64,000 nucleotides of DNA, from NCBI GenBank assembly GCA_973895155.1, contig OZ316896.1, positions 10,737,525 through 10,801,524 of the forward strand. The letters run 5' to 3'. The DNA comes from Marsupella aquatica. Taxonomy: Eukaryota; Plantae; Marchantiophyta. Numbering within the stretch: position 1 is the stretch's first letter; each line of letters starts with the position of its first letter. Both the position numbers and the translations under genes were made by a program. Below the pieces are notes generated by a model. The model was not told where the DNA came from, did no database searches, and saw only the letters and a list, made by a program, of their open reading frames with translations. Positions 9,311-64,000 of the stretch are shown here, piece after piece.

Positions 9311-9917
9311 GGGGTTTGGTGGTAATAATATTATGTAACAATTGGGATAGACTACGGTCCTTCACGAGTCACGACATCGAGTACTTATTAGGCCTCGCTC
9401 GAAAGTCGAATGGAATGCTTCTAGTCTTCTTCTTCGCTTGTCGAGTGCCATCTTTCTCCTCACCGACGTCATCGTTGTCATTCTAGAGACAGGAGCGGCG
9501 AGCAATTCTTGCGACGGGACTACCACGGCGAAACTGCTGGGTCGTTAGGAAGCTCAATTCGGGACCCTGTTGCGGAGAGAATGATGCAGTCGTGACGAAG
9601 CGCGGCTGATTGATTGATTTGGGTCTTTGTTTGAAGGGAAGATTTCCGAGCGCTGGAGAGGAATCGGAGCGGATTCGGGATATAGATGTCAATTTTCTTA
9701 CGTTCGCGGATAGCAAGGATTTGAACAGTTCCGATAGAAGAAGGGATTGGTGTGTGGTTTCCGGCATTGGCGGAGCGAGACGTCGGTCGTGTTGCACCTG
9801 CTCTGCTGTCGTTGGAGGTGTCTGTCTGTTGAGAACTGCAATTGCAAGAAACGTGCTCCGTCTTAGTGAAAGTTTGCTGAGTTGTTGTGTTGACGGTACT
9901 CGCTGAGTGGAGACACA

Positions 9918-14400: not shown

Positions 14401-14407
14401 TCTCCAA

Positions 14408-21958: not shown

Positions 21959-22650
21959 CCTCAAGACGAACTCACTACGAGTCCAGTCTGAGATCGTCTA
22001 GTCTCCACATTCCATCTCCATGGAGATGATGATGAGTGCCCACAAAGCAGAGCAAGAGAAGAAGAAGGAATCGAGGTCGAAGTCGAGGTCGGGCAATCGA
22101 CTCATCATCATCCGCTGCTGCTCGTCGAAACGCCACGAACGAGAGTCATCGTCGTGGTCGTGGTCTTCGTCATGTAGGAAGATTGGGATTCCGAAACGCA
22201 ATGAGGGCGGAAGAGGAGATGCTGCTTGGTGCGTCTTGTCTACAACAGCGGTGGCAGGAGGAGCAGTCTCCGATGAGGAGTTATGATTACTTCTGCTTGT
22301 GATTAGATGAAGATGGAGAAAGATGGTGAGATGTGTTCGAGAGAAGGCGGACTGGTTCGCTCGTGGATTGAGGGGAGACGTAGATGTAGAGAGACTGGTT
22401 TACGATTGGGGTGGATTGCTTTGTTTTGGTGTGTTGATTTGAGGTGAGTCGCGGTGAGTCTAGTGAAATAGGGCGGGGGATTCTTATTTCAGTCGAATCG
22501 AACGGAATTCGGTCAGTATGATAGATTTGATCAGACAAACGTAGGCCGAGTGAGAAAGAATTGACTCCGATCGAAAAAATTCGTGGACATTGCGGAGGCA
22601 TACCGAGAAAGGGGCGCTTGATAGGTTCAGAGCGAGAGAGAGAGGAAGAG

Positions 22651-39404: not shown

Positions 39405-41498
39405 AGTGACATCTTGAGGGACCTCAACGTCTGTAAAACAACAAACTAGACAATCTTGGAGTAGTAATGGTGGGAGGGCCTTAGAAGAAAGGGACTCCCA
39501 CAATTTCCCTTCCTCAATCCGTAGTTTCCAACAATTTTCCTTCCCCACTACGTAGAAGGGGCACTCCATAGAAGGGGCACTATGTAGAAGAACACATCCG
39601 TAGAAGGGGCCCCCACACTTTGTTCCTCCCATTTTTCTCTATTCTCATTTGTGAGTTTCTCACCCATTCCTAAACCCTAAACTTTTTCCCTATTGTGCTT
39701 GCTTTCAACGTGTGTACAGACCTTGGTTGTACGAACATCAGTTTTTTGGCCATCTCAAAATCAGGAGTCTATGGGCTTGTTGGAAAGAGCTCGCCAAGAT
39801 GAATCCAACAATGTGTCACACGGCCAAAACGGAGCTAAGATGGGAGAGATACAACAGATCGCGTTTTTTGATAATACGGGGGTTTTGAGGTCGTACGGAC
39901 GTCCGTATTGCAGGAGGTCCCGGCTTTGCAAGGGAAGGAGGAGGTAGCAGCACATATGGGGAACCTTGATCCATGCTTTTCAAAGTTGGGGCCCCCTGGT
40001 GTTGTATGGACGAAACGGAGGGAGACGGTGCCCCGTAAAAACTTAAACGATCATATCTTGGCCGTTTGACCTCCGTTTTGTGCATCGTTTACGGAGCCGT
40101 GATCAGGAAGAGGAGAGCTCCTCAGATATGTTTTCAGAAGTGAATTCTGAGAAAATTTTAGTTTCGACAATTGTAGGGGGCCCCTCCTTTTATGGCGGAC
40201 CAGTGGTGGCGATCAGGAGGATTGAGGCTAGTAGGTAGGATAGATAGATAGGATAGGAGGTGGTGGACTCAAGTGAGTCCTTGTTTAGCGGGGTGGTATT
40301 CACTCAAGAAAGTGATGAGGATGCTAACTCACTGGGCTCAAGCCATGACACTGTGAGTGATGAGGAGGAAGAGTAGTATGGGCGTACGGACTTGGTCGTA
40401 CGGCCTTTCAATTTTGAATTTTTTTGAAAGTTTGGGTACTCACAGGCTTGTTGGAAACAACTCGCGGAGCTGATTCCAACAAGAGGCGGCGCTCCTCAAA
40501 TGGAGCCAGGACGAGAAAGTTAGAGCCCCACGAAGTTGGTCAGTACGGGATACTAAAATGGCCATAACTTGGTCGTCCGATGTCCGTTTCGGGAGAGGTT
40601 TGGTGATTCATGATCAGGAGGAGCAGGGCTACCCAGGAATGTGCTCAGAGGTGCAATCAGAGTGGCACCAAGTTTTGGGCAATTGTGGAGTCCCTTGTAT
40701 TTTCGCGGTTTACGGAGTGATTTTGTGGGGCACCGTCAAAGGCACCATGGGCCCCTTGGTTAGGTAGGGTTTAGGGGTATGTGTGTGCCACATACCGCTA
40801 GGGTTTAGTTGACATTTATCTGTTGGTGATAGGATTTTAGGCGGCGCCGTTAGGAGAAAGTGGCAGCATCCAAGTGCCATCGGGGTGCTTGGGTGTTTTG
40901 GTTTGTGATATTTATGGGGGGAGCCCCGTAGTAGTTAGGGGGAAACTCAGTTTGAAGTTAGAGGGAGGATAGCGGATAGCATTAGGAGCTTGAGAGTGTG
41001 TTCAGAGTAGTGAGGTGGAAGCCATACTCATTGTCCAGGGAGGCAGGAGTTGGGTAGACGGCAGGAGGCCGGGTTACTCATGCAATGTGTATCACTTTCA
41101 CCAAAAGATATGGATCTGGACATTTTACTTGATGGATTTCTTTTGTGTGATTCCTCTCCCTCTGCCTTCTCCGTAGTTGTGTTCTCACTTGTATGATTTG
41201 AAGACACTTGCATGGTTTGGGTCGGCCTTGTGAGTAGGGGTGGTGACAACACCCTTTGGATGACCCTGAGTGGAAATGAGAAGAGAGTAGTCGGCAGGAC
41301 TTGATCAAAAGCTGTGGGGTGGAGTAATCGGTAGACTTGATCAAAACGTACATTTCCGGGAGCGAAAACTAAACTACTCATCCTTGGTGTAAGAATAATC
41401 CAAATAGCGTCCCTCCGTCGTAACCCGTACACGATACAAATGATTTAGTAGAGAAAACCACGTAGTTGTCGTCTTAATCATTTGATAAGCAAGTGACA
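39405..41498 (-). mobile_element. LTR-like element, same family as 731-2688, inverted orientation
   Basis: The minus strand starts TGTCACTTGCTTATCAAA (vs TGTCACCTGCTTATCAAA at 731). Shares ttttgatcaagtctaccga and aacccggcctcctgccgtct blocks. No TSD found. Confidence 0.65.
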
Positions 41499-44400
41499 CT
41501 TGACTTAGTGATACCTTGCGGCGGAATTCCATTTTGCAAGAGATTGTTATGGATGTTGGTGTACCTGTGTTGTGTGTTGTGTGATTATATTTTTCTTGTT
41601 TACATGGTGTGCCGCGATGTGAGTTGTGTATGGATGTGTGTCCACACGACTCCCCCATGCTTTCTCTTCCACATGCTAAACTATTGATGGGGAGCAGCCC
41701 ATGGTACATATTCAGCTCCCAAAAGCCTCTCTCTTCTTCATCTTAGTCTTCTTTATTGTCTGAGATCATTTTCTGGAAATTTGCAGTCTATTGCTCCATA
41801 GCATCCACTGAGGGAAATATCTCACAAATCCCTAAAATTCCACCATGTCCGATGAGCCTACACACTGGAAATGGTCTGAATGAAACCAACCTACTATAAG
41901 CAGAGGCAATGGCACAAACAAAAAGGATCTTCAATGTTTGATAATACCAAAGATTAGAGTGATGGTTGCTTCTCATCAAAAGAAGCTTGCGCATGGGATG
42001 CCAACCAGGACAACTGAACACAGTTTGAACCAGTCCTGGATGCTTTGATTTTAGCTCATGTTAACCAATGTTCAAATAGTGGTCAACCGATGGTGATTCA
42101 AGCTTGAAATGGGGCTGAAATGGGGACACTGCTATCTTCTGACCTCCAAATGGGGAAGCAAATTTGCGGATAGTGGTCATAGTTGGCCCTGGAGATGCTC
42201 TTAGAAGCTAAGCACTTATTTGATAGCAAAATGACAAGTGGGGAGGGCTTTAAAAGTGGTTGGGGCAACACCTTGTTAGGCAATGAGCATTGGGAGGGCC
42301 ATGCATGAACAATGAGGAGAGGGCACAGTCAGGTACCAAGCCACCAAAAACTAATTTATGGTTGTGTTAAGGTGATTCATAAAACATAATCTTAACTCAA
42401 AAAAGGAATGATTCATTATTCTTCTCAGCATCAAAAACTTTTTGAACGGGAAACACTAGAATTAACAAGCTAATTCACTCTCGTGTGTGGATCGTCAAAG
42501 CTTTAGTTCTCTTGAAAAAGAGTTTTGTTGATTCATCTAGATGGGATAACCTAAAATCTTTCTAACAAGATTTGGGGAAGGTTGCCTGAATTTTGAGCAA
42601 CCTTATAGAGAACCCATACCTGCTAGGAATGAACATTTTTTTTTTTTTAATTTTTAATTTTGGTTTTTTTTTTTTTTTTTTTTTTAATGTTTTGACTTGC
42701 CCAGGTCTTTCATTTGATTATCATTTTTTGATCTCGTGTTTCAAGTAACCCCTTCACAGTATTTTTGGAACTTTTTGTCTTTCCCAGTCAGCCACTTATT
42801 TCTTAGTTTGAAATGGACACTGTCTAGAGGAGCACTCAAACACCCCTCAATAAAAATGTCCACAACACCTGTGCTTGCTTAGGACGGAACCTTCTACCTT
42901 TTGGTTGCCAACAACCATGCACACCACACCTTTTTGTTCCCAACAACTATGTATACCACGGTATTTTCTGGATGATTGTTAAAATTTTAACAATAAAAGA
43001 ATTTAATGGAAAAATTAGTGTAAGAGTAGATTTGTATACATTATTCACATAATATCTTCAGTTGGTAGCATTGATTATTACTTTCACAAGTTGACTTACA
43101 GTAGTTGGCCAGAAGCCAGCGCCAGAGCGTGCCCTTTTTTGTCACTATGCAATAATACATATATTATAGACATTATTGTTCTCTTCAGGAATAATGCTAT
43201 TATTCTATCTTATTGTATCATTAAGATAGAATAATCGCATGTTTAATTTGCTTTAGAACAAGATTCTGAAGCAAGTTCCAGGATTAACATGTTATTTCCA
43301 TAGACACAACCTCTTTCCTATCTTGTGAATTTACTCAGCTAGAGGAGAGGCTGACTAGGTCCCGTATTAATCCTCTGTCCCTTATAGCTAGAATGAAATT
43401 TGTTCTATTGGACTACTGTTTGGAATTCCCTCCAGACCTGAGCCTACTTTTCTGTTTTTTTAATTTAGTTTTAATTTGTTGCCTATTGTTCTGTAGTCCT
43501 CATATAATTTGTACTTTATCTTGCTAAGGTCTTGTTTCTGTTTTTTAAGAATCATCCATGTGAAATTTGATGTTGACCCCCTTACACATTTTCAATTTTG
43601 TTTTTCCCCCAATTTTATGCCAACTTCCTAAAATTATTATTGGTTTTTTTCCATGACTAGCCCCGACTACTTGTTCTTTGAACATGAATTTAATAAGTAT
43701 ACATGTCAAACCGTATGGCTTGCACGGTGGTAATCATAGTCGTAAATTTGACCAAGCCGCTCATTTTGGCGCATTCCAAACTATTTGTTTTAAAACTGTA
43801 TTCGACATATTTTTCCGTTTGGTCTTTTTGGGACTTGATGTTTGAGGAGAGCGGAGGTTGGAGGAGAGCGCACAAATGAATGTGATGTGGAAAAGCACTG
43901 CCAGGACAAAGGGTTTGGGAGGAGCTAATGATGGCAAAGTTGAATCAAGGGAGTCTTGGTGTTTATTTTAATTGTTGGAGGCATTGGGGGTTTGTTATGG
44001 GATCTTAATTGCAATTTTGAGTCATTGTTCTCCTTTGTCCATTGTATCTTAGAACAAATTTTGTCATTTTCTCCCCTTTGAATTCAAGACAGGGCTAGGC
44101 AATAGCATTTCAACTCTAGGCAATCACCATTATTTAGCTTAGACTCCAATTCAATCAAAATCAGATGTGAACAATTCACCCCTATTGGCTGTTGGACTCC
44201 AATTAGACCTACTTGGAGCTGATGAGTCAGGGCCGAAGTAGTCAGATACCCCGTCAAACTCTCTTGTTGTGATGAACTTTTCTGTAGCAATGAGCACTTG
44301 AGTTTGTTTAAACCATAGTGACAACAAGTTTAGCAGCACATGTCAGGGAGGAGCAATTGCAATTCTACTTGAATGAAGTCTCAAATGGCAATGCTCCAAC

Positions 44401-46515: not shown

Positions 46516-48100
46516 TGAGGACCCGTGATGCCTGGAAGGAGTCGCGGAACTCGACTACCTTAACACTTAGCTCCGGCGTCGTTGACTCTGACGCCAAGCT
46601 CCCTTATGGTCCAGGCCCGGATAGGCCATCTGGGGAGGACTTAGCATGGGGAGACATGTGGGCAATGAGACGTGGCACTAGCGAAGGCAAGGCGCCGAAC
46701 TGGTGACACACACTAAGGACTCAGACTAGATGGGAGCTGGTCGGTCAAGGGGAAAAGGGTCAGGCTCAAAGTTGACCGTTCGGACCCCTGGATGCACTTT
46801 GAGTTCTGAGGGCTTGAGTGAGAGCTCCTCTTGGGCCCAAGGCCAATGGAGTTGACGCCTGGGGCAACGGATGCTTGGGGCGCTAGTTATGGCCCGATCC
46901 GAGTTTGGCCAATCGGGGGCCCTGAGCGGCGATGAGATCTGAGGGCCTAGGCATGAGCACTGGGTTGGCCCGATCATAACGGGCTAAGGCACTCTGCTTG
47001 CGAACGCCTAACTAGGAAGTTATGGGCGTTGCTAGTTGGTGGCGCGCCCAGACATGCGGGATAGGATCTGGGTTGCGGCCAAAAAAGTTGAGGACCAAAG
47101 TTGGTCCGGGGGTGGCAGGTCTCCAGAAGCATATATGAGGGAAGTGGTGTCTCCCTAGGGGCTAAGGGCGAGCCAAAGTCGTGAGCCGCGGTGGTCGCGA
47201 CACTAAGGGAAAATGCCAAACGGAAACGACGATATCTTCCCAATGGTGCATTGGAAAGCTCTCAAGGAGGGCGACATACTCCTAAGCTCAGTTGGGTCTT
47301 GAGGAGCCATGGGTTCTCAAGGTTTGCGGGTGTTATCACGCCCGCTTGCCAAATCCTACCGAAACAGCAGCCAAGCCACGTTCAGTCCAAAGCTTGCGTT
47401 GGGGAGGCAAGGCCAAGTAGGTGTGGAGGTTGAGTTCCAAGGGCACTTGGCCCCTAGACCATCAGTGGGGCGAGAACCGGGAGTTGGTTGCTAGAGTCGG
47501 GGCCATTCTGGTCCCGACGTGTTGGGACAAGCTTGGGGCAAGCTTTAGGACAAGCTACGCTATTTGGGCCATGAGCATGTCCTGGGGTCAGGGCGGTCAA
47601 TTGGGGATGGATAGGTACAAGGGGGAACCCGGGCCGAGCCCAAGGAGGGAGTTGTTCCGGACAAACAGTGGGCGTTGGTTTGGTTCAGGCTTATGGCATC
47701 GGGAGGACCTATCGCTGACCTACTTACCAATGTCTGTTGAGCTTGAGTTAGGATGCTAGACTTGGGGATATCTAGATCCTGAAGGGTTACTTACCGAGAC
47801 GTTTGGTTGCTTGTGCACACAGTGAGGACCGTTGAGTAGCGGTCGTGTCGGAGAGCAAGTGCGGCTTCGTATGGGAGGGGCCGCTGGTGGTGCTAGGGCA
47901 CTAGGTTGCTTGCTCGAGGTATTCTGTGGAGACGTTCGAACACCAGGGGCACTTAGGCATAGGTGCTGGGATTGGTGAAGGCGCCCGGTGGCTGGACTGC
48001 ACAAACCTGCCAAATGAGGGCCGACCCAGGTTAGAGTGAGGGGAAGGGGGCCTGCTGGATTTTCCCCCAGAAACATTTTGGATTGTTGGATGATGCGTAG
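46516..48100. mobile_element. GC-rich LTR-like repeat fragment
   Basis: Begins TGTGAGGACCCG and is non-coding. Contains ggaaagctctc and gttatggc modules like those in the other LTR-like elements. Boundaries are uncertain. Confidence 0.35.
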
Positions 48101-48459
48101 TTAACTAGGGGTGGTGAACTAAACTGGAGTCTGGAAAACAGTGGCATTGTAGTCAATACACTAAAAAGTGTGGCACATTGTGATATTCGGACTAATAAGG
48201 TGACAATCTAGTAAAAACCAGTTTTGAAAAATTCACAAGATTTAATGTTACTTTAAACTCAAGATCACCTATTTTAGCTAGCGCCTGAAACCAAAGTGAA
48301 AAAAGTATTTTGGAAAACTGACAAGAATTAAGGTTACTTTTGACTCAAGATCACTTTCACCAAAATTAGTGTTAGTTACAATAACTTGGTAGTAGTGCTA
48401 ATTTTTACATAATACTAATTAGTGTGAAGTGTTGCTTTGTTGGGGAGAACTGCTGTCAG

Positions 48460-48920: not shown

Positions 48921-51900
48921 CAGTAGAACCTCATAGATGCCCATCCCTGAAAATTTATAGTATCTCCAGCCAGTAGAATCTAGACCTCCTTCTCTCTACT
49001 GCATCCCTATGGATCCTCATGCTTGCCCATGCTGGTTCAACAAACTAAATATTCCCAACAAGAGCCAAACTATAGGGATCGTAGCCCTGATCCTCCAATC
49101 ATTCCCAGAGATGACTTTTCTCAAAATGATCTGCATAACTCATATCCAGCTAACTTACAATGTGAGCATTCATCTCAGATAGCCCCTTCCCAGCACTCAA
49201 ACTTCGGTATTTTATATTATGGATGGATGTTCTCTTCACCGAACACAACATAAAGCAACAAATCAAAAAGGCATGTGTAGCATAAAGCAACGGATAGAGA
49301 AAACAGGAAAAAAAGACACGGCCCACCTTGGGGTTGAACAGGAAGAACACGCCATATCCCACTAGCCCCACCTTGGAGGGGAAAAGGAAGAAAACCCAGT
49401 TTAGTACAACCGTACCTGTGGGGCACGGTGGCAGCTGGTGTGGGACCCTGGGTGTCAGGTGGACTAAGTGCCATACCAATGTACTCCAGATGGACCAGAT
49501 GGATACTTTGAATAACACAAGCGCATTCCCAGGAATGTTTCTATATCTGACTGAGTCCTTACAAGAAGACTGTCTCTCTAATGGTAGCCATTCAAATGGG
49601 GGAACAGGTCTTCAAGATTGGGGGACAATCTGGCAAACCAATACCAATCAATGTCACCTTCAAGTGGTGTTTTTTTTTTGCTGATGTTTACTTATAAAAA
49701 ACTTAGACCAGCTCAATCTCTAAAGAATGGATAGCTTGGTCCATTTCTATTCATGGTCTTGCGTTTAGTACCTCCAGTCCTGGCACATTTTGGCTCGGGC
49801 TTGTTGACTTCAGTGTATGCAATGGGTGAATGGCCACTATTTGTGCCTTAACGTTGTTGTAAAGCCCCCCTCAGAAAATGAGTGAGTGGCTAATTGAGGC
49901 TTTACCTGGCATTTATTTGAGCGGGGGATCAAGAGCTGCAGCACACAAACAGAGGCTCGTCCACATAGGTTCCCATTCATTTTCAATTTTATGAGGGCCC
50001 TTCAAGTCTCCTATGATGAGACAGTCCAAAGAAACAAGGGGATGGTGGAGGAGTTCCCCACACTGTCTTGCCTGCCAAGTCGATCTGGCATGCACAGAGC
50101 AAACTATGTGAGGCCCTGAGAACGGCTATAAAGGTGGAGCAATTTGGTCAAGATTCAAATCTAAATTGTCAAGGTCTGACTCCCTTATCTCGTCACCTGC
50201 CTGGGTGTCTACAATGCTGGTGGGAGTGCTCTAGGAACAGGAGAAGAAGAAGGAGGGGGAGGGTGAGGAGGGGGAGGAGGAGGAGGAGGAGGAGGGAAGA
50301 AAACTTTTACTAGGCCTTTCTCCAAACAAGTCTATCCCATTTTTCCATAGTGGGCATAAAATTGACAACTAAATCTTTGTCCTTAAATAGGCAAAACCAA
50401 GGGATGAGCAAAACAAAGGCTGGATTTTCCCCCCATTTTCAGCCTGTCCCTTGTGCCCAATCTATGGATAGATGGACCTGAGCTGATGATGAAGTGTATG
50501 ATCCAAGTGCTAAGAGCATTCCCACCGGGGACGACATTGCTGACTATATCATCACATTGGTGATTCTAAAACTAAGAATTTAGCTGCCATCAAGTGACTA
50601 CATCTAGGTTCAAGGTAGGTTGGGATCACAGATCTAGTGACTACTATGAAAATTGCGGCAGATGTGATGCTTCCTTTATAGTCACTACTATTCATTTGTG
50701 ATGTAAGTACTTGATAGCAGGCTTGATAGGGAAATCATTGAATGATGGAGGGCCATTCATTGAGGATTGACTAGATTAGTTCTATTCTGGCACTTTATTT
50801 CCATTTTGGCACCATTTTGCCCTGCAGATGGAAGGAAGGACAAAAATATGAACCTATCCAGCTCGGTGTGAATCCTGCCATAGTTCCTTCCCCCTGTTTT
50901 GCCCTGTGGATAGAAGGAAGGAAATGCTGTGCTGAGCTTTCCTACAATCTTTTCCCCTGTTGCCCACCATTTTGTTTAGTCCCTATTACCCCCTAGTTAG
51001 ATGAAAGGAAGTGCTCTGCTGGGCCTTCATTCAATCCTTTGCCCAGATGCCCACCATTTGGCAACACTGCTGTAATCCCTATCACCCTTTATTTCCACAA
51101 AATCTTTAGTTTGCATAACAATATACTTTCTGCAATGATATATTTTTTTTCTCTTTGGCACAATGACCTCTTTATGAAATATATCCTCAATATAATCTTT
51201 TATGCAACGTCATCTTTTGGGTAACGATGTCTTTTACACAATAACATATTTTGTATAACAACATCTCTCGTGTAAGGCTTAGATATTGAGATACTTCTGC
51301 ATAATGACCAATCACCCAAACCTTCAAATATGTTTTGTATAGCCCTTACTGGCTGATGGTAGGAATTATAAAACATTATCAAAAAATAAACTGAGAAATT
51401 AGTATCAACTAAGACTTTCCCCTCAAGTGCTTTCAATACTTAATGGTTCACCATTGGATCAATCCAAACTAGCCAGAGTTTCATCAACAGTGACAAAAAA
51501 GTCAAAATATCATGATTTAACACAAATAGTGACAAAGTATCCAATTCTATCCTTTTGGTGCCCCTCAACCCTATGATTGACCTAGGATGCGGTACACAAC
51601 AAGAACACACAAGAATCTGTAAATCAGGTTGGACTTATCTAGACACAGGTTGGACTTATCTGGACAATCTCATAAACAAGTTGCTATAATGGTGAATCCA
51701 CCTTTCAAATTTTGTCTTATCCATATTTTTTGTGTCATGTATTTTTATTTAAATGTGCCTTATCAAGGGGCAGCCTTTGTAACATATATATTTTCCATTG
51801 ATTTTTAGACCCCTTTAATTTTAGGTATTCTAGAGTATTTTGAATTTATTTTGGCAGCCCCCTTCTAACTTTTAAAGTTTGGGATCTCTTAGAGATGAAA

Positions 51901-52829
51901 CCAACGAGCTTTGAGCTCCTGTCTATAGGTTTTGAGCTCCTGGCCATGGAGTTCAGACTGTAGCACAGTTTTTGCGTCATTTTGACTACCCTCTCGCACT
52001 CAGTTTTTCTCGGAATCCATTTTTCTCAATTGCGTTAGCTTGCTCTTGCCGAGGCGCATCAAAATTGATATAAAACACGTCAAAAACGGTGTCGTATCGA
52101 CATACTTATGGTCACATTCGTTTTCGCTGTTTTTCAGCCATTTTTCTATGATTTTTGCCTTCCTTTCGACGATCATATCTTGGTCAATCTTTCACGGATT
52201 TCAGATTTCTCAAGTGCTTTGTATAGCTCTTCTCCGGGAGAATCAGATTGATCCCAAGAGCGGTCCAATTGGTCTCATATTGCCCCGATTGGACTTTGAT
52301 TAGCTTTCACATTTTTTTTCAAGTTCAACCGTACTCACTTTCAATTAGCTTTGGGGTCCTATAGCAGTTCCTCGTTCACGGAATCAGGCATTCTCATGTG
52401 ATTTGGCCAGCTCTTGTCCAGGAGTGCAACATCTATCCCTACCGCGGTCCTTTTGGTGACATATCAACCACTTTCGGCTCCGATTACGATTCTGATTTAC
52501 TCCTCCATTTTTGGTGACGGTTTCCCTTGATCAACTTTGGAGCATTCTTGTATTGCCACGTTTCTCCTCCGATGGAGTGTGATTGCCCATCAACCAAGCA
52601 AAACTTGCTTGTGCACTAAAGCTGACTAAGCCAACTTCATCATTTAGATCATTTTGTGCTGTCTAAATTCATTTCTATTGCAATGGATACAAATAGCTGC
52701 AATGGATACAAATAGATGGTCTATTTTGGTGGAATCTTAGTACTAATGAAGGCCAAATTTGAGAATTAAACAAATGTCAGTGAATGATTAGCTTTCCACA
52801 TAAGATACATATTGGGACACAAATGCATT

Positions 52830-53380
52830 CTAAGCCAATTTACCTAAGCCGACTTTAAGCCAATTTGACCTAGGAAAATTAGACCTGAGCTGACCTCACC
52901 TACTCCAATCTGACCAGAGAAAACCTTGGCTAAGCCAAGTTGGCCTTTGCCAACCTAATCTATGTAAGCCAACTTCAAAATTTAGACCTGTCCAGCTTTG
53001 CGCATTTTTAATTTCATTTCTATTGGCTAAAAAGGTGTGAATTTATTGCCTGATAGTACAGACATAGCCGTGTACTCTGGTAAAAGATCAGTGCCACTAG
53101 AGCTTGAAGTTGAGAAATAAAAATGTACAAAGATATATAAAATAGACTCAAAAATAGACAAAGCTAACCAGTGATCAGTTTGCCGCACTATACACAAATG
53201 TCTTCTATGTAAGGCCAATGACACCTAAGATGATTTCACCTAAGGCAGCTGATTTACCTAAGTTGACCTTAAGTTAACCTGACCTAAGCAGATCTGACCT
53301 CAGCCAAAATTTATCTGGTTAGTTTGTCGCAAAAGACATGATTAATGCCTTCTAAGCTGATTTGACCTAAACCCCAATTT
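52830..53380. repeat. Cluster of short (G/T)ACCTAAG-like repeats, possible subterminal region of the large element
   Basis: More than 10 variants, e.g. tacctaagttgaccttaagttaacctgacctaagcagatctgacctcagcc at 53256-53305. Confidence 0.55.
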
Positions 53381-53639
53381 AAGGAAAACCGAACTTTGGA
53401 AATTCCGAAAATCACTAAATATTATTATTTTAATAAAAAGGGGGCGACATGACGCGTGGCTGCACGTGAAACCCTGAAAATGACTGCAACGTCACATTTT
53501 AACCAATCCAACTTGACGGGACCAAGAGACATGCTCACGCGAATAATAATAATAATAGAGAAATAAATCTTTGAGATCCTTTATATATGATAACCAGTAT
53601 ATAAGGAGTTTACAAATAGTTTCTAGAACGACATACAAA

Positions 53640-54368
53640 TTAATCTGATCTCATGTTGACTATTATTTTGGAAGCGTCCAAAATTGGGCGTTTGTTAAAT
53701 TGCTCTACTAGATATCTATCTCCATGCCTCTGAATCACAGGGTCTTCCCATAGAGTATGATTATAATCATAATCTCTAAAAATAGATTTAACTGACCAAT
53801 CTGGATAATCTCTTCCATTGGCAATGACAAGCGGCTCACAAGAGTTTGCTAGCTTGCTAAGATACGGAATCAGCAAGTTAATCAGGAAACTATCGTCGAC
53901 CGACCCAAAATATTTGGGCGGAAATAATGATCCAACAACAGGATCTAAACAAGCATGAAATGCATTGGATTCGATAAGCATTATATTTTGCTGCAGATAC
54001 GCCTTCGTATAAATTCAAACCTTCTCAAAACACTTCAAAAATATCCGCTTATTTGATGTCACCCCATCGCATAAGTAACAATGAGACTGATCCCAAATAT
54101 ACTTAAATGAGGCCATTTCTATCACAGTAAAAATAGATGCTAAAATCTGATCTAAATGGTTCTTCCCAAGAGAGGACCAGATCCCTACATCGAAATTCTC
54201 AAAACAGAATCTCAAGAATTCGTGAAGATGAGGCCTTGGAAAAACGTATATATTCCCAATCCGAATTCCAGTTGAGACCGCCATCAGTTGGGAATGCAGT
54301 GCACTGTAACAGAGTAGATGCTCCACGTCTAAAACTAAGAGCCCATTTTCTCTGCTGCAATGAATCTC
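53640..54368 (-). pseudogene. FCP1/NIF-like HAD phosphatase domain (copy 3)
   Basis: LLVLDVEHLLC…RPHLHEFLRFCFENFDVGIWSS…YIWDQSHC…FLK…NIMLIES…DDSFL…LIPYL. In-frame TGA at 54015 and a frameshift near the 5' end. Preceded by the acceptor tctctatag. Confidence 0.8.
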
Positions 54369-54454
54369 CTATAGAGAAACACAAGAAGATGCATGAGCCC
54401 GTATGGATGTAGTCACGCGAATGGTCGCGTCACATATTACAGAGAAAACATCCT

Positions 54455-55161
54455 CTACACTCTGGCCATTGATAAGTGACGTCTGTTGAAGTGCTTGATA
54501 AGAACTTGATCCGCATGTCTCTACACGTACAGATGCTCCCATATATCCTCGTTCAGATCCCAATCTCGATGTAGATTTCTAATCGACCAGATGGGATAAT
54601 CAAACTTGTTAGCGAACGCAAGACAAAGCCCTGAATTTGATAGCTTTCGTAAATATGGAATGAGGTCATCCCTCAAAAAGACATCATCCAACGATCCTTG
54701 AAACGACTTAGCGAACAATAATCCGCATACAGCTGTCTGGCATGTATGGGAAGGACAGGCATCAATCTGGATTATATTCTCTGGTCGATAATCTTGAAAA
54801 TATCACGTAGTCTCTCGATAGATTTGAAGACAATAGTCTTATAATTTTTTTTCACATAACCAAGATTCCAGCAATGATCCCGCGTGAACACATATATCAG
54901 CTGCGACAGGTCGGTGCTCGACAACACTTCTGAAAGTATCTGATAAACCAGTTTATCGTCGAGAATAGACCAGACCATCACATCAAAATGATCATAACAG
55001 AATTTTATAAGATCATGAAGATGCGGCCTCGAAACGACACATAGAGATCCGATACGAATTCCGGGTGTCGACTTGAGCTGAGGAGTATATTTTGAAACAG
55101 AGCACAGGAAGTTTTCCAGTCCTAAAACTAGAAGTTTACGCGACCTGCTCCACTTAGACAC
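54455..55161 (-). pseudogene. FCP1/NIF-like HAD phosphatase domain (copy 2)
   Basis: KLLVLGLENFLC…RPHLHDLIKFCYDHFDVMVWS…VFTRDHC…FKSI. Frameshift near 54790 into ENIIQIDA…DDVFLRDDLIPYLRKL. TAG at 54521, after which homology to copy 3 continues. Confidence 0.8.
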
Positions 55162-55286
55162 CTGTAAATGAACAATTCGATTCTCATATTATGCAATTGC
55201 AAACAACCACGCGACCCGGCGCGTCACTCCCAAAAGTTCAATTTCAATCAATTTATAAATAATAATTGATAATAAACAATAAACGT

Positions 55287-55880
55287 TTACTTATTGGACT
55301 TATCCCGGGCTTCTATAGCACGGTCTTTTTTGGCAGATAAGTATTTCATAAATTCGTCAAACTTTTCTAAATGGTCTTTATTCCCCTGATTACGAATGAT
55401 CACGTTTCTCCTCCAAAGATTCGTCTTATCAATATAATCTTTCTCAAGATTTTCTTGAGAGAACATTGGAATCCCATATCCACTAAGGAGCTCGCGGAAT
55501 GTCAACTTGTCAATTGACATGTCACATAGATATGGATATAGTTTCTTTCTAAAAAATAGGTCATCATCGAGCCCAGAATATGCATCGGGATACATCGATG
55601 AATAGAAGTCATTAAGGCTCGTCTTATATGCAGCGTCATCGATAAGAATGACATTCTCGATGTTGTAATCTTTAATATCGGCGACAATGTTCGAGAGACA
55701 TTTGACAAATAAAGGGATGTCATTATTATTCTTCCCAATAAGTCGAGTTGATTCTTGTCCCCATATAAATTTAATACATTTCAAAACTTCGGGTCAAAGT
55801 ATCAGCCTTACACAAGATAGAATATTCAGTTTGAACATGCACGACCAGATCGCAATGTCGTATAGATCTGCCACCTGGGA
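55287..55880 (-). pseudogene. FCP1/NIF-like HAD phosphatase domain (copy 1, 5'-truncated)
   Basis: YDIAIWS…(TGA 55794)…FIWGQE…FVKCLS…NVILIDDAAYKTSLN…DDDLFFRKKLYPYL. The N-terminal DxD segment is missing. Confidence 0.75.
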
Positions 55881-56112
55881 TTAGGCGCCATCTGTACCTG
55901 TGATTTTTGTGCTGCAGGGTTTGGAGAACGTACTAGAACGGTCTGTTTGTTTCTCGCCTCCGGACGATCACCGGACTTCCGGACTGGTGCCTTCGATACT
56001 CGATCAGGGGGTTTTGGGATAGGCTCTTGTAAAACATTAAGAAATGAAAATAAGTTTATAACGCAAACGGTCGCGTGACTACAAAGAGAGATACTGAAAT
56101 GAAGTGTATTAC

Positions 56113-56901
56113 CTGTACAAGACGGTCGTTCAGTGCTGGAATTCCACCAAAAATGTCAATCATAGCAGCATGGATCCCGGTAACTAGGTTACTTGCGGAC
56201 GTCAGCTTGCGGAAGTCCATGTCAAATAACGACAAGACTATCTCCCTACGGAATTTCTCAATTTAATCCGCGGCTAAATTAATTCCGTTTCCTTGACACA
56301 AGCACTTGGCGTATCTCAAGATAAACACACCACAACTATGGTCGTCACTCTGGTGAGGAATATCATTCCGATATATCCGTTCCCAACCTGAGAGATCCAA
56401 GTTGACACCAGTTCTCCAGCCAATTTTGTCGGCGTAGTACTTCCCAACAATATCTAGCACCCCAGGATTTTGTCGATTATGAACTAGAGAATCTAGGTAC
56501 TCCAGCCGTTTCTCCTTCGGATACAAGACTACCAATGACCAATGTTCTTTCACAGCATTGTGTACTGGAAAGACCAGTTTCTCGTATTCACTGATTTTTA
56601 GCGGAAACTCCTTTGTCCAAGCTACTCTCTCCTCGTCGAAAATGGTAGGATCCATGGAGAGAAGCTCAAAATGGTGTGTTTGGAAGAATTTGACAAGGTC
56701 TAACTTTCCAACTCTATCGAGAATCAGTTCGAGAAAACTCAAATAAGCGTTAATTATATCATCGGTGAGCAACTTGCGCGGTCTCAGACACATCATATGT
56801 TTCCTCTGGATCGAGTGTTGTAAGAACTTGGTCAATAGCTCTTCCATATCCTTAGAAGGATCAAGGCATTGATCTATTCGACTAGCCAAATTTTCAAAAA
56901 A
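56113..56901 (-). pseudogene. Ulp1/SENP (peptidase C48) domain, exon of the large gene
   Basis: LLTDDIINAYL, FPVH…EHWSLVV, YLDSL and PHQSDDHSCGVFIL: the His-Asp-Cys triad and oxyanion Gln are present. An in-frame TAA at 56263 is followed by IEKFRREIV. Exon is bounded by cag|ttt and cag|gtaata. Confidence 0.9.
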
Positions 56902-57919
56902 CTGCAAAAAATAGAGATTTCAGTACGCCTTCAAATAACGTACTGAGGTTGTAGCCTAAGGGTTGTAGCCTCAGAAAACAGAAACAATAACAGATCAATA
57001 ATAAAATAATGACGTCTATAATAGAAACTTTAAGCTTATAGCTTGCGAATGACCTTTGGATTGGGTGGATCCGGCCTTTTCGCAGCTGATCTCTTGGGTG
57101 CCTCAATCGCAACAACATCCTTCAGCCCTCCTCGAGACCGCAGTGATCGCTCCACCTGACCAGTTTGCGAAGGTTGGAGCGATGAGGCGGGAAGACCTTC
57201 AAATGGTTGTGGCATTTGATTCAAATATTCCACAATCTGGGAATCCGATTCCAAAATATCCGCTGCCACAATTTCTGCGCGAGTCATCTCTGCAATATAT
57301 CGGGGTCGAGACCACGAACCCGGTCGGGTCAAGTCAGCTGTTAGTCTCTTAACGACTTGAGCCGAGTCTGGTGCCAAAAACGTTCCCATGTCTTGCACTC
57401 GATTCTCGGAAAAGCGGACATTATTGATGATTGTCTCCATTCTGGATGCAGTGGCAGTCTTCTCCTCGGTAATCAAAAGACCCTTCCAATATTGCAAAGC
57501 AAGGACTGCTTGGACTCGGAGCTGCTCCAGTGAATATTTATTCCAATCATCCAACGAGACCGTACTTAAGGGTGGATCATTAAATTCAAACTTCGGGTGA
57601 AGAAAATAGTCTAATATTTTCTTCTTAACTGCAACTGAGGGTGAAGAAGGCTTCTTCAAATTCAGCCTTATTTTTGGTAGATGTTGTGCCTCAGGATTAA
57701 GCGAAAGATCCTTGGCCCTCTCGGCCTCCTTCCTCGCTGCCTCCAGTCTTGCGGCTTCTTCTCTCTCCAGTCTTGTGGAATCGACCTTTTCCGCCTCCAA
57801 CTTCTCTACCTCCACCCTCTTTGGTCTTGCGGTCTCGTCCGCCATCCTCTCGGCCAGCAGCCTCTCAGCCGCCACACTCTCCGCCTTGGCCCTATTTTCC
57901 TCTGTCACTAAAAGGACTC

Positions 57920-58625
57920 TCGCAGCCTCCGCTTTCTCAGCCTGGGCTTTCTCAGCCTCAACATTCTCGGCCTCTACTTTCTCCGCCTGGGCTTTCTCAG
58001 CCTGGGCTTTCTCAGCCTGGGCTTTCTGAGCCTGGGCTTTCTAAGCCTGGGCTTTCTCGGCCTCCGCTTTCTCAGCCTCCGCTTTCTCAGCCTGGGCTTT
58101 CTGAGCCTGGGCTTTCTCAGCCTCCGCTTTCTCAGCCTCCGCTTTCTGAGCCTGGGCTTTCTGAGCCTGGGCTTCCTCAGCCTCCGCTTTCTCAGCCTGG
58201 GCTTTCTCAGCCTCCGCTTTCTCAGCCTGGGCTTTCTCAGCCTGGGCTTTCTCAACCTGGGCTTTCTCAGCCTGGGCTTTCTCGGCATCCGCTTTCTCCG
58301 CCTGGGCTTTCTTAGCCTGGGCTTTCTCAGCCTGGGCTTTCTCCTTCTTCTTCGCGGCAGTTGCTTTTCTAGTTGTTGCCTTTTTCTTCTTAACCTCCTT
58401 CTTTTGAAGCTCCTCTTGTCGGGCCGCCTCTTGTCGGGACGCCTTCTCTTGCCGGCCGCCTCCTTCTTTTGAAGCTCCTCTTGCCGGGCCGCCTCCTGCC
58501 GGGCCGCCTCCTTCTTTTGAAATTCCTCTTGCCGGGCCGCCTCCTGCCGGGCCTCCTCCAGCCTGGCCTCCTCCTGTCGGGCCGCCTCCTCTCTGGCCTT
58601 CTCCTGCCGAGCCGCCTCCTCTCGG
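57920..58625 (-). repeat. Coding tandem repeats: 15-bp (EKAQA/EKAEA)n and EAARQE(E) repeats
   Basis: More than 25 units of GAGAAAGC(C/G)(C/G)AGGCT at ~57920-58345. GAGGCGGCCCGGCA(A/G)GAG units at ~58400-58625. Confidence 0.95.
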
Positions 58626-61600
58626 TCCACCTCATGTCAAGGCTCCTGTGTGGCCTCTTCATCAGAGTCCTCAACGTCCTCGGAACCCTCCATCTCCTCG
58701 TCCTCTTCATCAGCGTCCTCAGCGTCCTTCATCTCCTCTCCGTCACTCTCTTCATCTCCTCTATTGTCGGAATCTCCGACGTCGTTCTGCGTATCGGTCA
58801 TCCACTCTGGATCTTGGTCATTGACATCCCCATCCGCATCACCTTCCGCGTCACCTTCCCTCTCACCATCCGCATCACCATTTCTCCCTGCATCCTCAAC
58901 ATTGAAGCCGCAGTCGACTTGATCTGAATAAAATCAGATCATTTGATAAGAATGACTCACGTGCATATTCGCGTGAAAAGAAATGTTATGAATGTCCACG
59001 CGCATGTTCGCGTGACGCAATAAAAAGTAAGAGGTTTCAAAAGTAACTTACCTTGGATTGGCCCACTAGGGTACTCCGTTGGTCGAATGTACAATCAATC
59101 GGAATCTTCAGAGAGTGCATACTCTTGCAATAATTGATTACAAATATTATCAGGGATATGTTGTTCGTGGAGGACATCCAAAACATCAGCCCTGAGAGCT
59201 GTTACGGATGGACGGTACTTCATTAATTTATCTATACATTTTTCTATACTAGCCCGTATTGGGTCAATCAATGACAGCATTGTATCAATTGTCGCCGTGG
59301 TGTGTTGCAAGAAACAAGACAACTCCCTATGCGTTGCCACAGGGCAGTAATATTTTACATTGGATTCAGCATCCTGTAAAAAAAGCCGAAATTAGTTCAC
59401 AATATTAATTGAGAATATAATAATCTAAATAATCTTAAAATCAAAACCCCAAAATATAAATCTCAAAACTTACCATTAAGCACTGGATCAAGTTCGTTCC
59501 CTCACCGAAGCATATAGCCCATTCCCCACATTGGACGAATTGACTAACAATACTTTCAAAGAATGGAAGTATCTTTTCTGGGGAAGGTGTCGTGAACTCG
59601 CCACTCTCTTCAAAATTGGCTATCTTCTCAATCTGATATTTGGAGACCAATTGGAACTCGAGGGCTTGTGGATCGCCCATTGTGCTGAAGGCCAAGCTGT
59701 GAAAAGCGTAGGTTACAATAAGCTTCTTCTCCTTCGGTCGCTTCTAAATATGATGGCTATCGATAGCAACGTAGTGTGTGTACTTCCCTAATTCTCGTTT
59801 GATTAAGTAAGACTCAACGGGAGAGGCTACAATAATAACCACATGGTGTGGTTTTGTCCCTATCTCGCTAGTAGCACGAAATAACCCCTCATAGAATGAG
59901 CAATTTGGCGGACGCAAATCTCCCATTGATGAGGGATCAAAATAAATCAAGCTCACAAAGTTCTTGTCTTTACGTATGATACAGTCTGCAAACCCAGCAT
60001 TTTGTATATCCTGCAAGGATCACAATTTCAGCCTCTCACCGACCGGCCGCACTAGTTGGTTTCCTTGACTATCAACTGATTTCTGTATTCCTTCGACCAA
60101 CCTGTAGAATATAGGGTCGATCTCCTTCAACAAATTATCATTACTAATATTTACATTTAAGCACTTCTTCAGATAACCACTCAACGCATCTCTCAACTGC
60201 TTCAGCACCATCTTGTCGAGCTTAAAGCGATCAATCATTCCTTTGACCCGCAATTTCCGCGTTGAATCTGTCAGAATTTTCAGCTCCGTCCGGGTGGATG
60301 TTTCCCCGTTGATTTTACTCAATAATAAAATCTCAAACTCAACTTTCATCTTCTTCTTTATACAGAATTGCTCCAAACTCATGCTGGTCGTTGACAACAC
60401 TGGAGCCTCAGAGGACTTCCTCGCCTTCCCAGATTTCACTTTGATGCTTCGGTTTTTGAGTATAGACAGTCTTCCGCTCAACATATATTCCGCTGCCTTT
60501 CAAAGAACCGAGTCTGAGCACCCTTGACAAGAACGGAATGTCATCTTCAAAAGATGATAAGCACACGGATTATCCGCAATTTTGACGGCGTCCCTCTGTA
60601 AAATTCCGTTGTAAATTACAAGCTCTCCTGTCCTTGATAGTTTGTAGACCTCCATCCACTTCTTGAATGTTTTGTCCTCCATTGTAAAGAGAAACGGAGC
60701 CAATTCTCCAAATTTCATCATTTTGTTCTTCCCCATTTGAGCCCATGGGCAAACAAAACTCGTAGCTCTCATAAATACCTGAAAAACAATGGAAACATGA
60801 CAATTTAAGCTTGACGCGACCGTTTGCATGACAAAAGTTTATACGATAATGTGATCGAAGAGGGTTATTTATATACCTTCCAATTTGGATGATGATAATG
60901 TGATCCAGGCCGCCCAAATGAGTTCCAGATATTACGACACTGTCGTACAATGGTGAGAAACTGTCCTTCTTCCATTGATGTTTGATGACAATGGTTCAGA
61001 GCTTTCGATAATCCCATCAAATGAACATTATTGTCGTTGTTGAGCGTTGCCCAAAACATTACAGCTTCTACAGTACCGCAAGCGTCTCGTACAACTTGGT
61101 TGACTTTGTCGTCCTCTCTCAGCAATTTGTACGCCATTATTGTGTGCTGGCCTCTGAGTATCCAAAAATGACTGGTCATAATGTCCTCCTCCTTTGGCAA
61201 TGAATCGTAGGGCGTCCCATTGTAGTCGGGATCTCTGTCGGCCTCCGACTGAACCCACTTCACAGGGACTAAAAAGCAGCATCGCTTCTCGAAGTTTATA
61301 GCCGAATGAGAGAGGAGTGAATTCTTTAGCCTATCTGTGTAATCCTGATTCCACTCTCGGCACTTGATGTGGTCCGGTGCAAGATGACAACGTGATGTCT
61401 CAACAAAAAATGACTTGCTGTTAAATATATTCACAACACTATATTCTTTGAGGAAAGAATCGAACAGAGCCCCAACATTTGCTGAGGTAATTACTTTCGG
61501 AAGATTCTCCGTCGAGTATACTTCAACCTTGCTCACTGGCGGGGCCTTACCCAAGCGAAATCCCTGGTTGAAAGGAACTCTCTGGAACTCAAGTACGTCC

Positions 61601-61951
61601 ATAATGTATTGACAAATCAAATCTCCCGTTGATGCCTCTGGATCGGAAGGATATCCCACACTAGTAACCTTTTCCAAGGCGTGCCTTGCACCTAGAAGAT
61701 CATTGATTCTGGGCTGATTGAAGGTTACATATTGCGTTCAATCCAAACAAATGCTTATTTTGTCTTCCTGCTGGTCGTCGCTGACTAGCAGAACCAATCC
61801 CTCTGTACACTCTTTAACTTTCATGTTCTTCTCAAAGAAACACCCGAGAATTTTTTATCTCTCCAAAACTGTAGCTTTATCATTTCTTGCCACCACAAGA
61901 CGGACAGCCCCATTGCGAACGACTATTCCAAAATCGGATATCTCAGTCGAT

Positions 61952-62458
61952 TCAAAGAGATGGATACTCTTTTTCATCTAACCAAAACCAAAGGTTCCTA
62001 AACGTGTCAAGTTCAGATCCTTCAAATCCACCCAGAATGTCCAGCGGTGGGAGAGTTCTGATGGATTCTGTAAATCCTAATGCTACACTCCGTGAAGTCA
62101 AATGCCTTCGAAGCGATTCATATCCTGGTCTATCAGTGAAGTCGTAAGCTACCAAGGTGACCGTCGCCCAAGTACTACTATAAGTAACTATGTGGCACCA
62201 CTTCTTACTGACTGTTCGAATGGTGATCAAGTCCATGACCCGATTTTTAATCGTAGTATCCGACAAATTCCCAAGATAGTGGAAAAACTCTTTGACTAAT
62301 GGCCAAATATATTTCTCGACAATATCGTCCGGAAGACCGGGTATCAGGTCTTCAGCTTGACTCCATATCATGTTTCGGTTCATAACCTTTGCACGTGCAA
62401 TGCGCTCCATCATCATTTGACGATGAGATTTTTGATTCATGTCAAAGGATTGCAGCAT
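61952..62458 (-). CDS. F-box-like protein (tandem copy 3)
   Basis: LIPGLPDDIVEKYIWP…LITIRTVSKKWCHIV…W. Uninterrupted 168-aa ORF. Confidence 0.75.
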   Translation of the reverse strand: MLQSFDMNQKSHRQMMMERIARAKVMNRNMIWSQAEDLIPGLPDDIVEKYIWPLVKEFFHYLGNLSDTTIKNRVMDLITIRTVSKKWCHIVTYSSTWATVTLVAYDFTDRPGYESLRRHLTSRSVALGFTESIRTLPPLDILGGFEGSELDTFRNLWFWLDEKEYPSL

Positions 62459-62492
62459 AATATGGAAAAGATTAAGAACAAGAACCTATCCA

Positions 62493-63059
62493 TTAAGAAC
62501 TTGGACCACCAAGATTCTGAGAAAATCTACCAAACCTTTCGATTAGGACATCTCGTTCTTCCTCATCTAAATTGTTATATTTGTTCGTAAACAATGCGAT
62601 TTCGTCAGAAGTAGTAGTCCCAAGAACAGATATTTCTGGAAGCATAGAAATATCCTGTCGAATAACTCGACAGACTGAGTCAAACTCCAACTCGTCAGTT
62701 TCGGGTATGTCGTAAAGAGCATCATTTGCGACATCGACAATCCGGTTTGCTTGTTTGAGGATAGCCCATAACTTTGTATTTGTAACTAAAAAGTTCCACT
62801 TCTTGCTACAAGCTCCAAGCCGAATAAGGTCTCGGACCCTATCGATAACCAAATTGTTATCGAGGTGTCGATATCCACGCAATCTTTCAATTGAAATAAA
62901 GTGTTCATAGAGTATTGGCCAAATGTTTGAAATGACCAAAACATCTGGTATTCCTCCAATGAGACTAGAGGAGGTTTCATCCAGCGTATCCCATATTGTT
63001 TTCTGTTTCTTTTCATGAGTTGAAAGGAAATCTTGAGCCTCATTCAAAAGTTGGCTCAT
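62493..63059 (-). CDS. F-box-like protein (tandem copy 2)
   Basis: LIGGIPDVLVISNIWP…LIRLGACSKKWNFLV…LW. Uninterrupted 188-aa ORF. Confidence 0.75.
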   Translation of the reverse strand: MSQLLNEAQDFLSTHEKKQKTIWDTLDETSSSLIGGIPDVLVISNIWPILYEHFISIERLRGYRHLDNNLVIDRVRDLIRLGACSKKWNFLVTNTKLWAILKQANRIVDVANDALYDIPETDELEFDSVCRVIRQDISMLPEISVLGTTTSDEIALFTNKYNNLDEEERDVLIERFGRFSQNLGGPSS

Positions 63060-63124
63060 CCTGCTTTTATCATATCACAAAACATTGTTAGAAGACATAC
63101 GACGCGCTTGGTCACGTAAGTTAA

Positions 63125-63676
63125 CTAGAATTCCTTAAAAGCATAGATGTCACCCTCAAGGTATCCAACTTCGTGGCATCTGATTGTAAATTTCCATTTT
63201 TCAAGAGGGTGAAGAGCATCGTAAGTCTTTGTGAAGAGTTCCCTAAGATCTCTGGACATTGACCCCATGAATTTAATTCTTGGGTATTTTTGGAAGAAAC
63301 TTTGAACTGTCGATGAGAGAGACTCATTTCCGATCGGTTTAGTAGGATTTCCTGGGAAAGCCAAATCTAATAAACTCAACTTGATTACACCCAGAAGATA
63401 GGTATTCCCAACAAGGTGACGCCATCTGCGACACACCGAAGATAGTCCTACAAACTCATCCAATTCCTTTATTGAGAAATTTCCTGCATTAGCCGAGGAA
63501 TTAAAAGTCTCCTGGATCCGAGGCCATATCAATTCCGCGACAATGAAATCTGGAAGTCCAGGTAGTAGTGTTTCAATAAATACAGAATATCCCGCCAGTA
63601 GACCATCTTGGCTTCTGTCCAAAACGTCAAATATTGGGCATAGATATCTGAAGCTCTTCAGACCAGGTTTGCCCAT
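63125..63676 (-). CDS. F-box-like protein (tandem copy 1)
   Basis: LLPGLPDFIVAELIWP…VGLSSVCRRWRHLV. Uninterrupted 183-aa ORF. Confidence 0.75.
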   Translation of the reverse strand: MGKPGLKSFRYLCPIFDVLDRSQDGLLAGYSVFIETLLPGLPDFIVAELIWPRIQETFNSSANAGNFSIKELDEFVGLSSVCRRWRHLVGNTYLLGVIKLSLLDLAFPGNPTKPIGNESLSSTVQSFFQKYPRIKFMGSMSRDLRELFTKTYDALHPLEKWKFTIRCHEVGYLEGDIYAFKEF

Positions 63677-63716
63677 GACTCTTTTCAGCCAAATGATATA
63701 TCCTAGAGATTATTTT

Positions 63717-63977
63717 CACGCGACTGGTCGCGTCTACAAATCAGAATGCATAAACAATTCTTTGAGAGACTAATTTTTTCGGGTCACAACGTGAAAAATC
63801 ATAAATGTTGCTTCGTCCTCTAACAGAACCAGTCAATGAGAGAGCAACCTCAGACGCGACTGGTCGCGTCAACTGAACCTAAACAACTATATCCACTGAA
63901 CCTTCTGTGGAGATTTGGATATGGTACGCGCTCAGTAAATCTATCCAGTTTCCTTCTCACACGCGACTGGTCGCGTC
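63717..63977. promoter_or_regulatory. Three copies of the dyad ACGCGACTGGTCGCGTC upstream of the cassette
   Basis: Identical 17-mer within 63717-63734, 63853-63870 and 63960-63977. A regulatory role is inferred. Confidence 0.6.
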
Positions 63978-64000
63978 AACTGGTCCTAAAAGGAACCTTA

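Follow-up and report, generated by a model that had tools for sequence, protein, structure and literature searches.

What does a long palindromic DNA motif do when it recurs in the predicted introns and gaps of a repeated element in a liverwort genome? The question is raised by a stretch of 64,000 nucleotides from Marsupella aquatica (contig OZ316896.1, hereafter the window), in which a multicopy element that runs off the right edge carries the dyad SACGCG-N6-CGCGTS. The original prediction had listed eleven such sites from the letters of the sequence, and all eleven have been found at their positions with the letters given: six perfect, two with one mismatch, and three with two. We read the dyad as the operator of a dimeric, element-encoded protein that would keep the element family active, a reading to which we assign an even chance and in which binding is presumed.

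The motif itself is confirmed. With up to two mismatches, it matches 13 times in the window against 1.25 expected (standard deviation 0.93; maximum of 4 in 100 dinucleotide shuffles of the window), namely at the eleven listed sites, at 53441, which overlaps 53451, and at 9291; 12 of the 13 fall in the last 10.6 kb. CpG dinucleotides are more frequent in the element (observed/expected 0.7-1.07) than in the 4 kb to its left (0.17-0.31), a bias that has been controlled for by shuffling the element stretch itself: positions 53400-63815 hold four perfect dyads and six with at most one mismatch, compared with 0.0 and 0.01 in 300 shuffles of the same stretch. Hence the predicted sites exceed shuffled background even when only the element is shuffled. 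The fixed 6-bp spacing has proven equally sound. When spacers of 0-20 bp were scanned over 53-64 kb with at most one mismatch in the 10 core bases, a spacer of 6 gave nine matches and all other lengths 0-1 each, and spacer 6 gave no match in 1-53 kb. At two mismatches other spacers score too (nine matches at spacer 1, five at spacer 8), and all but three of these overlap the eleven dyads; the independent signal is at spacer 6 only. In a leave-one-out weight matrix every one of the eleven dyads scores above all positions in 1-53000, and outside the element, in the window's remaining 53 kb (host DNA and different repeats), neither the spacer scan nor the matrix found the dyad. A weak twelfth dyad-like site, without either CGCG core, has been observed at 57313 (matrix score 12.9; next best position 5.9).

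The unit is longer than first reported. Of the 22 half-sites, 16 have A directly inside the arm, 12 have C at the position after it, and 16 have T on the outside, so that the spacer had been described as more variable than it is. The half-site reads TSACGCGAC with a near-invariant A-C-G (22, 21 and 22 of 22), which makes the dyad a 20-mer in which 4 bases separate two octamers. In line with the original prediction, most arm deviations (6/8) are CpG-type transitions; of the 44 arm CpGs, 38 have been retained. Pairing of the outer S bases is seen in just three of eleven dyads, and the halves therefore vary independently.

Two octamers with centres 12 bp apart are also the geometry of ocs/as-1 elements, which raises the alternative of a host transcription factor site recruited as an enhancer, e.g., for two TGA bZIP dimers or for CAMTA. 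In its S-A-C-G start the half-site is similar to halves of bZIP C-boxes and G-boxes, TGACG occurs 2.1 times per kb in the element against 1.0 outside, and TGA factors are described as binding TGACG and tandem repeats in a spacing-dependent manner (PMC9360754). However, TGACG starts only 6 of the 22 halves, in no dyad both, and five of the eleven dyads have none; the core is ACGC and not ACGT, the latter being found in just three halves, all of them through CpG-type deviations. The paired CAMTA boxes that had been suggested are not borne out either, as vCGCGb fits 4/22 halves and MCGTGT none of the 22. The dyad is also absent from 53 kb of gene-bearing host DNA, and we consider a host factor, be it one of these or another, unlikely.

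How many of the sites are independent depends on the right-hand part of the element, where repeat status has been taken from the depth of contigs of four public runs (X1, X2, X5, X6). Summed depth over 53.2-63.4 kb is 1540-3150 in X1 and 4260-14490 in X2, compared with 57-176 and 31-119, respectively, over 48.4-51.4 kb; as summed depth is no copy number, the element is taken only as present in tens of copies or more. Pieces of it at 95-100% identity are carried by X5 and X6, which are labelled as other organisms. A further run, X7, with the same species label as X1, has just 0.02 of the element's words. In X1, X2 and X5, position 64000 is joined to 63816 with 2 letters in between, which shows that a ~187-bp tandem array with two dyads per unit lies at the right edge of the window (depth in the last bin 5377 in X1 and 56040 in X2). 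Rarer joints (e.g., 63998) return to 63711 and so include the dyad at 63717. The count of about eleven independent sites was thus too high: 63853 and 63960 share one array unit, 63717 belongs to the array in some copies, and at most nine dyads are independent. The inventory is eight dispersed sites plus the array. The eight are not located in repeats, and ungapped flank identity is ≤42% in all 55 dyad pairs; sharing the 20-mer only, they do not stem from a larger segment that was duplicated recently.

The original prediction had further confined the dyads to introns and spacers. In a gene model in which 11% of 53400-63815 is non-coding, 9/9 dyads of this stretch do fall in the non-coding part, with a chance of ~7e-10, or 7e-9 at one dyad per gap, both of which overstate the case because the model was drawn with the dyads known. 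One dyad-bearing intron (60779-60876) has been confirmed at the level of protein sequence by the homolog P0022, a single uninterrupted protein that aligns with the exons on both sides. The match of P0041 (50% identical) ends at the 59473 donor, and the dyads 55208 and 63101 follow stop codons. Without their dyads the gaps have a GC content of 29%, compared with 44% in coding blocks, and the dyads stand in them as GC-rich islands.

Sites in such positions might act as RNA hairpins, i.e., as splicing or small-RNA signals in introns, or be neutral remnants spread from the array. A short stem is possible and forms in the predicted structure of three of six dyad-bearing gaps, and the array would be a ready source of copies; yet none of the gaps shows folding clearly stronger than that of shuffled sequence (z −1.64 to 0.98), the outer bases mostly fail to pair, and Rfam matches were absent from 51-64 kb, while the dispersed flanks are unrelated, the spacers differ where the arms hold, and most arm CpGs survive. 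Both variants together are very improbable. Fixed spacing, two-fold symmetry, independent halves, the lack of a folding signal and the recurrence in unrelated AT-rich gaps argue instead for a double-stranded DNA site for a dimer, so that the dimeric-protein site originally proposed remains the best fit.

The window's copy of the element carries in-frame stops and frameshifts. Fifteen of 24 listed differences between copies inside the element (out of 40 listed of about 1800) are of C-to-T type, and 14 of these 15 lie in CG or CHG, which make up 36% of cytosines; the copy has thus undergone the CG/CHG-type decay that is a mark of host methylation. At position 58962 the arm-consensus base is found at 1488/1488 depth in X1, 4343/5488 in X2, and 15/15 in X5, which together with the CpG-type nature of the arm deviations fits near-perfect sites in active copies. 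At the left end (51810-52560), 3-4 degenerate repeats of ~184-188-bp period, ~70% alike, have been observed, whose sequence shows no relation to the unit of the right array. Depth is very high in the first ~200 bp (33,500 in X1 at 51845), possibly a terminus common to short derivatives. Between left end and genes, at 52620-53380, a run of short ACCTAAG-like repeats of ~10 bp goes along with a drop in depth (to 449 in X1). A matrix scan of the left end region (51.8-53.4 kb) did not find the dyad, and Helitron or CACTA ends were not identified at the element. The element is multicopy and likely transposable, and we infer a DNA transposon; KDZ/Zisupton is a possible class. In searches beyond the window, the array 20-mer met three metagenome loci of 65-68% GC and the dyad 61 viral loci, only one of which has a second dyad, and tblastn with eight element proteins gave no matches at any of these loci. 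In view of the missing protein matches, the high GC and the rarity of a second dyad, these loci have been treated as chance.

All genes of the element lie on the minus strand (Table 1), and among them a ParB-like gene provides a candidate reader of the dyad. Its ParB-like exon has 26 matches among 1.84 billion representatives, two of which were judged spurious, leaving 24 relatives; none of the ten names looked up was informative. The alignments exclude P0005 and P0027 (repeat-driven) as well as P0007 and P0020, with P0034 added from its cluster. A structural model from ten sequences has reached a predicted local distance difference test (pLDDT) score of 77, and comparison with 48,161 chains has ranked KorB first (Z 6.6, root-mean-square deviation 2.7, 84 aligned), followed by PadC (6.4, 3.0, 85 aligned), SerK (Z 5.5), Pnob8 ParB (5.1), and sulfiredoxin (5.0). 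Seven of the eight top rows are ParB/Srx-fold proteins, counting SerK and Atu1540, which we take to belong to this fold by their family names. Among the rows shown by Foldseek, ParB 6sdk has the highest probability (0.47). The models thus suggest, with moderate strength, that the element encodes a ParB/Srx-fold domain. A search for longer proteins containing the ParB-like exon found none, and that with ULP1 found one weak reverse transcriptase (RT)-ULP1 protein. The same long gene is predicted to encode the ULP1 domain as its C-terminal part, the join to the ParB-like exons being likewise predicted. Coding repeats of 15-bp period (28 K-A-Q/E-A-E units, then A-A-R-Q-E) lie between an acidic stretch and ULP1 at 57923-58633, and tandem peptide repeats are described for VANC proteins as well (PMC5735166). 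Further along the element, the NIF/CTD blocks stand in tandem, each downstream block being preceded by a gap with a dyad about 44 bases before the AG acceptor; in the middle block the DxD motif looks altered.

The nearest Atlas cluster to the ParB-like exon is DUF3723 (PF12520; 0.95 by features, 171/256 shared), but 0/24 aligned members have a Pfam match to PF12520 and the recognition score of 2076 lies below the 2300 mark. As DUF3723 occurs in tyrosine-recombinase Starship elements, this likeness bears on a different function of the dyad, namely that of a transposase or recombinase site used in movement, in which the array would serve for synapsis at a subterminal or internal position and the dispersed dyads would help to fold the element. 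Two arms around a 6-bp centre resemble tyrosine-recombinase sites, and each array unit contains two dyads. Nevertheless, with crossover sites in many introns the element would lose parts of itself, the left end region is without a dyad, the centre differs between dyads, and no recombinase match has passed the cut-off (Phage_integrase E 0.073, 13.3 bits versus 27.1), which makes such a site quite unlikely.

The original prediction had also labelled a region ParB/methyltransferase-like, and the dyad might accordingly be where a DNA methyltransferase of the element itself (4mC or 6mA) acts, marking the element as self. By eye, the second exon shows D-P-S-S and F-G-E-G-T in beta-class motif order, a phage ParB-N6/N4-methyltransferase fusion (L068:1444-2607) has the same layout, and interrupted palindromes are generally typical of methyltransferase sites. 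However, the only homolog has D-C-S and F-S-E-G at the motif positions, with 16-18 bases the site greatly exceeds the usual length of methyltransferase targets, and neither Pfam, PHROGs, PDB sequences, the Atlas nor profile-profile comparison has lent support to the label; the last of these weak tests (hhalign probability 0.15, alignments of 2 and 4 sequences) is insensitive, as even between the ParB alignment and that of the phage ParB-methyltransferase it gave no match. A methyltransferase target is therefore highly improbable.

Among known systems, the closest parallel in placement is VANC. Its motifs are described as non-palindromic words of 8-9 bp, e.g., YAGTATTAY, in one orientation, lying in introns, intergenic gaps and tandem repeats (PMC5735166), and KIU Vandal elements have been reported to fuse the DNA-binding anti-silencing VANC to Ulp1 (PMC13317346). 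The element here shares with VANDALs a ULP1 domain and the setting of a short family-specific motif, which in both cases occupies introns (here predicted), intergenic gaps and tandem repeats within a plant repeat that is methylated. It differs in bearing a 20-bp dyad, about one per gap, instead of dense short words, and in its candidate binder, which has a predicted ParB/Srx fold; no VANC-like domain or MuDR transposase has been found in the 16 element open reading frames (ORFs) scanned, and the element runs off the window. Thus the proposed analogy to VANC extends to placement but not to the form of the motif. A family-specific, CG-containing motif, CCVTCGCAAA, is described for TnpA-Spm1, an element regulator that causes hypomethylation and activation (10.64898/2026.08.24.746577), and CACTA-ULP elements exist (PMC2528002). 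TnpA binds termini, whereas the dyads are internal and missing from the left end region (the array may adjoin the right end), and no TnpA or TnpD domain has been found among the element ORFs scanned. KorB, the ParB-fold regulator of RK2, controls genes from the 16-bp palindromic operator OB, for which the title of a cited reference gives 12 sites (PMC11790492). KorB/OB and ParB/parS resemble the present system in the ParB/Srx fold, predicted here, and in palindromic sites spread over the same mobile element; unlike them, it belongs to an intron-bearing eukaryotic element, has G-Q-H-T in place of GxxR, no identified helix-turn-helix (HTH), no ParA in the window, and a different site sequence. 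The accessible text of PMC4738411 mentions ParB-HTH methyltransferase fusions for chlorophytes and chytrids only, and that of 10.1101/2025.10.10.680097 mentions eukaryotic ParB-like domains without transposons. By analogy the dyad would work like the VANC and TnpA motifs; since the motif form differs, we do not claim membership in either system.

Reading the dyad as an operator, an element-encoded dimer would bind the dyads in all copies of the family, and binding would maintain their transcription or hold off silencing, in the manner of VANC and TnpA. The ParB-like...ULP1 protein would dock at each dyad, as KorB does at its operators, and thereby bring its SUMO protease to chromatin; selection on active copies would have placed the dyads. 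The predicted ParB-like...ULP1 protein is the best visible reader, a tentative assignment based on modelled structure, and roughly the same likelihood is given to a transposase or some other protein whose gene would lie outside the window. A stronger version, in which plant elements have taken up a bacterial-type ParB/KorB system whose ParB-fold-ULP1 protein loads on a parS-like palindrome and shields the family from silencing, is rather unlikely in our judgement; here the palindrome would sit in most introns and be amplified in a tandem array of nucleosome length. If true, anti-silencing would here have originated independently of VANC and TnpA, and a ParB-operator pair would exist in a eukaryote.

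Several observations weigh against the operator. VANC and TnpA motifs are not long palindromes. The gene model behind the non-coding placement is partly circular, 54414 and 56060 are also readable in frame as run-ons of the upstream ORFs (56060 to a stop at 56056), the weak site at 57313 falls within an ORF, and at least two predicted introns (59374-59473 and about 56904-57053) have no dyad, so that the predicted confinement to non-coding DNA holds for the nine dyads of a model drawn around them and not strictly beyond. Conservation across copies has been seen at one position (58962), and no diverged relative's DNA was confirmed among two candidates in viral contigs and 52 in metagenome contigs. 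In the window's part of the element no transposase (16 ORFs scanned with Pfam), terminal repeat or target duplication was found. As to the proposed reader, all fold Z-scores lie below 8, a range regarded as common in this comparison, Foldseek gave no match for the ParB-like model at E 0.001 or better, and no DNA-binding domain or HTH was identified after the ParB-like domain (no Pfam match; model of the next exon, from a single sequence, with pLDDT 31). Moreover, as the motifs are mapped here, all ten aligned sequences have an invariant G-Q-H followed by T or S where ParB has GxxR, and exchange of this arginine for alanine is described to abolish nucleoside triphosphate binding in ParB-fold proteins (10.1101/2025.10.10.680097). 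The ParB-like label thus stands, on modelled structure, for the fold, but the P-motif arginine appears to be missing, and parS-type clamp loading is only possible.

Table 1. Dyads, genes and extent of the multicopy element in the window (single dyads and the weak site given as 20-mers).
Feature	Position	Strand	Remarks
Multicopy element	51800..64000		holds all dyads and genes; left end approximate, right end beyond window
Dyad 1	53450..53469		one CpG-type deviation, atypical spacer; downstream of last NIF-like ORF; leave-one-out score 10.7, background maximum 4.8
Dyad 2	54413..54432		perfect; between two NIF-phosphatase blocks, predicted intron/gap about 54370-54440
Dyad 3	55207..55226		perfect; AT-rich gap between stop at 55287 and AG acceptor near 55163
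Dyad 4	56059..56078		two deviations; predicted intron about 56026-56112 after ULP1 domain, GT-AG, AT-rich
Weak dyad-like site	57312..57331		inside ORF; absent from original prediction
Dyad 5	58957..58976		predicted intron 58924-59051; one deviation, private to window's copy
Dyad 6	58996..59015		perfect; same predicted intron as dyad 5 (58924-59051)
Dyad 7	60812..60831		two CpG-type deviations; intron 60779-60876 of ParB-like gene
Dyad 8	63100..63119		two deviations; between first and second F-box-like ORFs
Dyad 9	63716..63735		perfect; directly upstream of first F-box-like ORF, array edge
Dyads 10 (63853) and 11 (63960)	63816..64000		first unit of ~187-bp tandem array, runs off window
NIF/CTD-phosphatase-like blocks	53640..55793	-	two with Pfam E 7e-08 and 4e-12, third similar by eye
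ULP1 (Peptidase_C48) SUMO-protease domain	56266..56919	-	Pfam E 9e-16
Further exons	57036..59373	-	short exon, acidic stretch, charged repeat of 15-bp period; frameshifted in window's copy
Next exon	59474..60778	-	435 codons, three in-frame stops; methyltransferase-like motifs degenerate, by eye only
ParB/Srx-fold exon	60877..61737	-	motif W-I-x-x-G-Q-H-T; gene begins further up, past in-frame stop at 61738
Three F-box-like ORFs	61952..63709	-	all below Pfam cut-off (E 0.002-0.02)

The remainder of the window contains further repeats and a gene. At 46600-48400 lies a different GC-rich repeat that is extremely abundant (depth about 190,000 in X1) and also present in X5 and X6, and a ~146-bp repeat array occupies a CpG-poor stretch at 20650-21990. 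A dispersed repeat occurs in long inverted copies, 70-86% alike, at 678-1756 and 39773-41499, and an intact single-exon gene of glycosyltransferase family 92 is found at 27937-29913 on the minus strand. With this gene and the CG and CHG decay, the window has the appearance of nuclear DNA of a land plant.

The open-licence literature has yielded no description of a plant element with ParB-like and ULP1 genes, or of DUF3723 together with ParB. We are dealing with a real, well-defined cis-element in an apparently undescribed element family, which the supplements of PMC4738411 and 10.1101/2025.10.10.680097 could list. Sequence-specific self-regulators of transposons have so far been worked out for the Arabidopsis VANDAL and Spm elements, and one 20-bp dyad with one ParB-fold candidate offers a sharp, testable pair in an unrelated element; the ParB-like family has about two dozen unnamed relatives in public assemblies. 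If the ParB-fold protein reads the dyad, a bacterial partition and repressor fold would work on eukaryotic chromatin, and anti-silencing would have arisen again from different parts.

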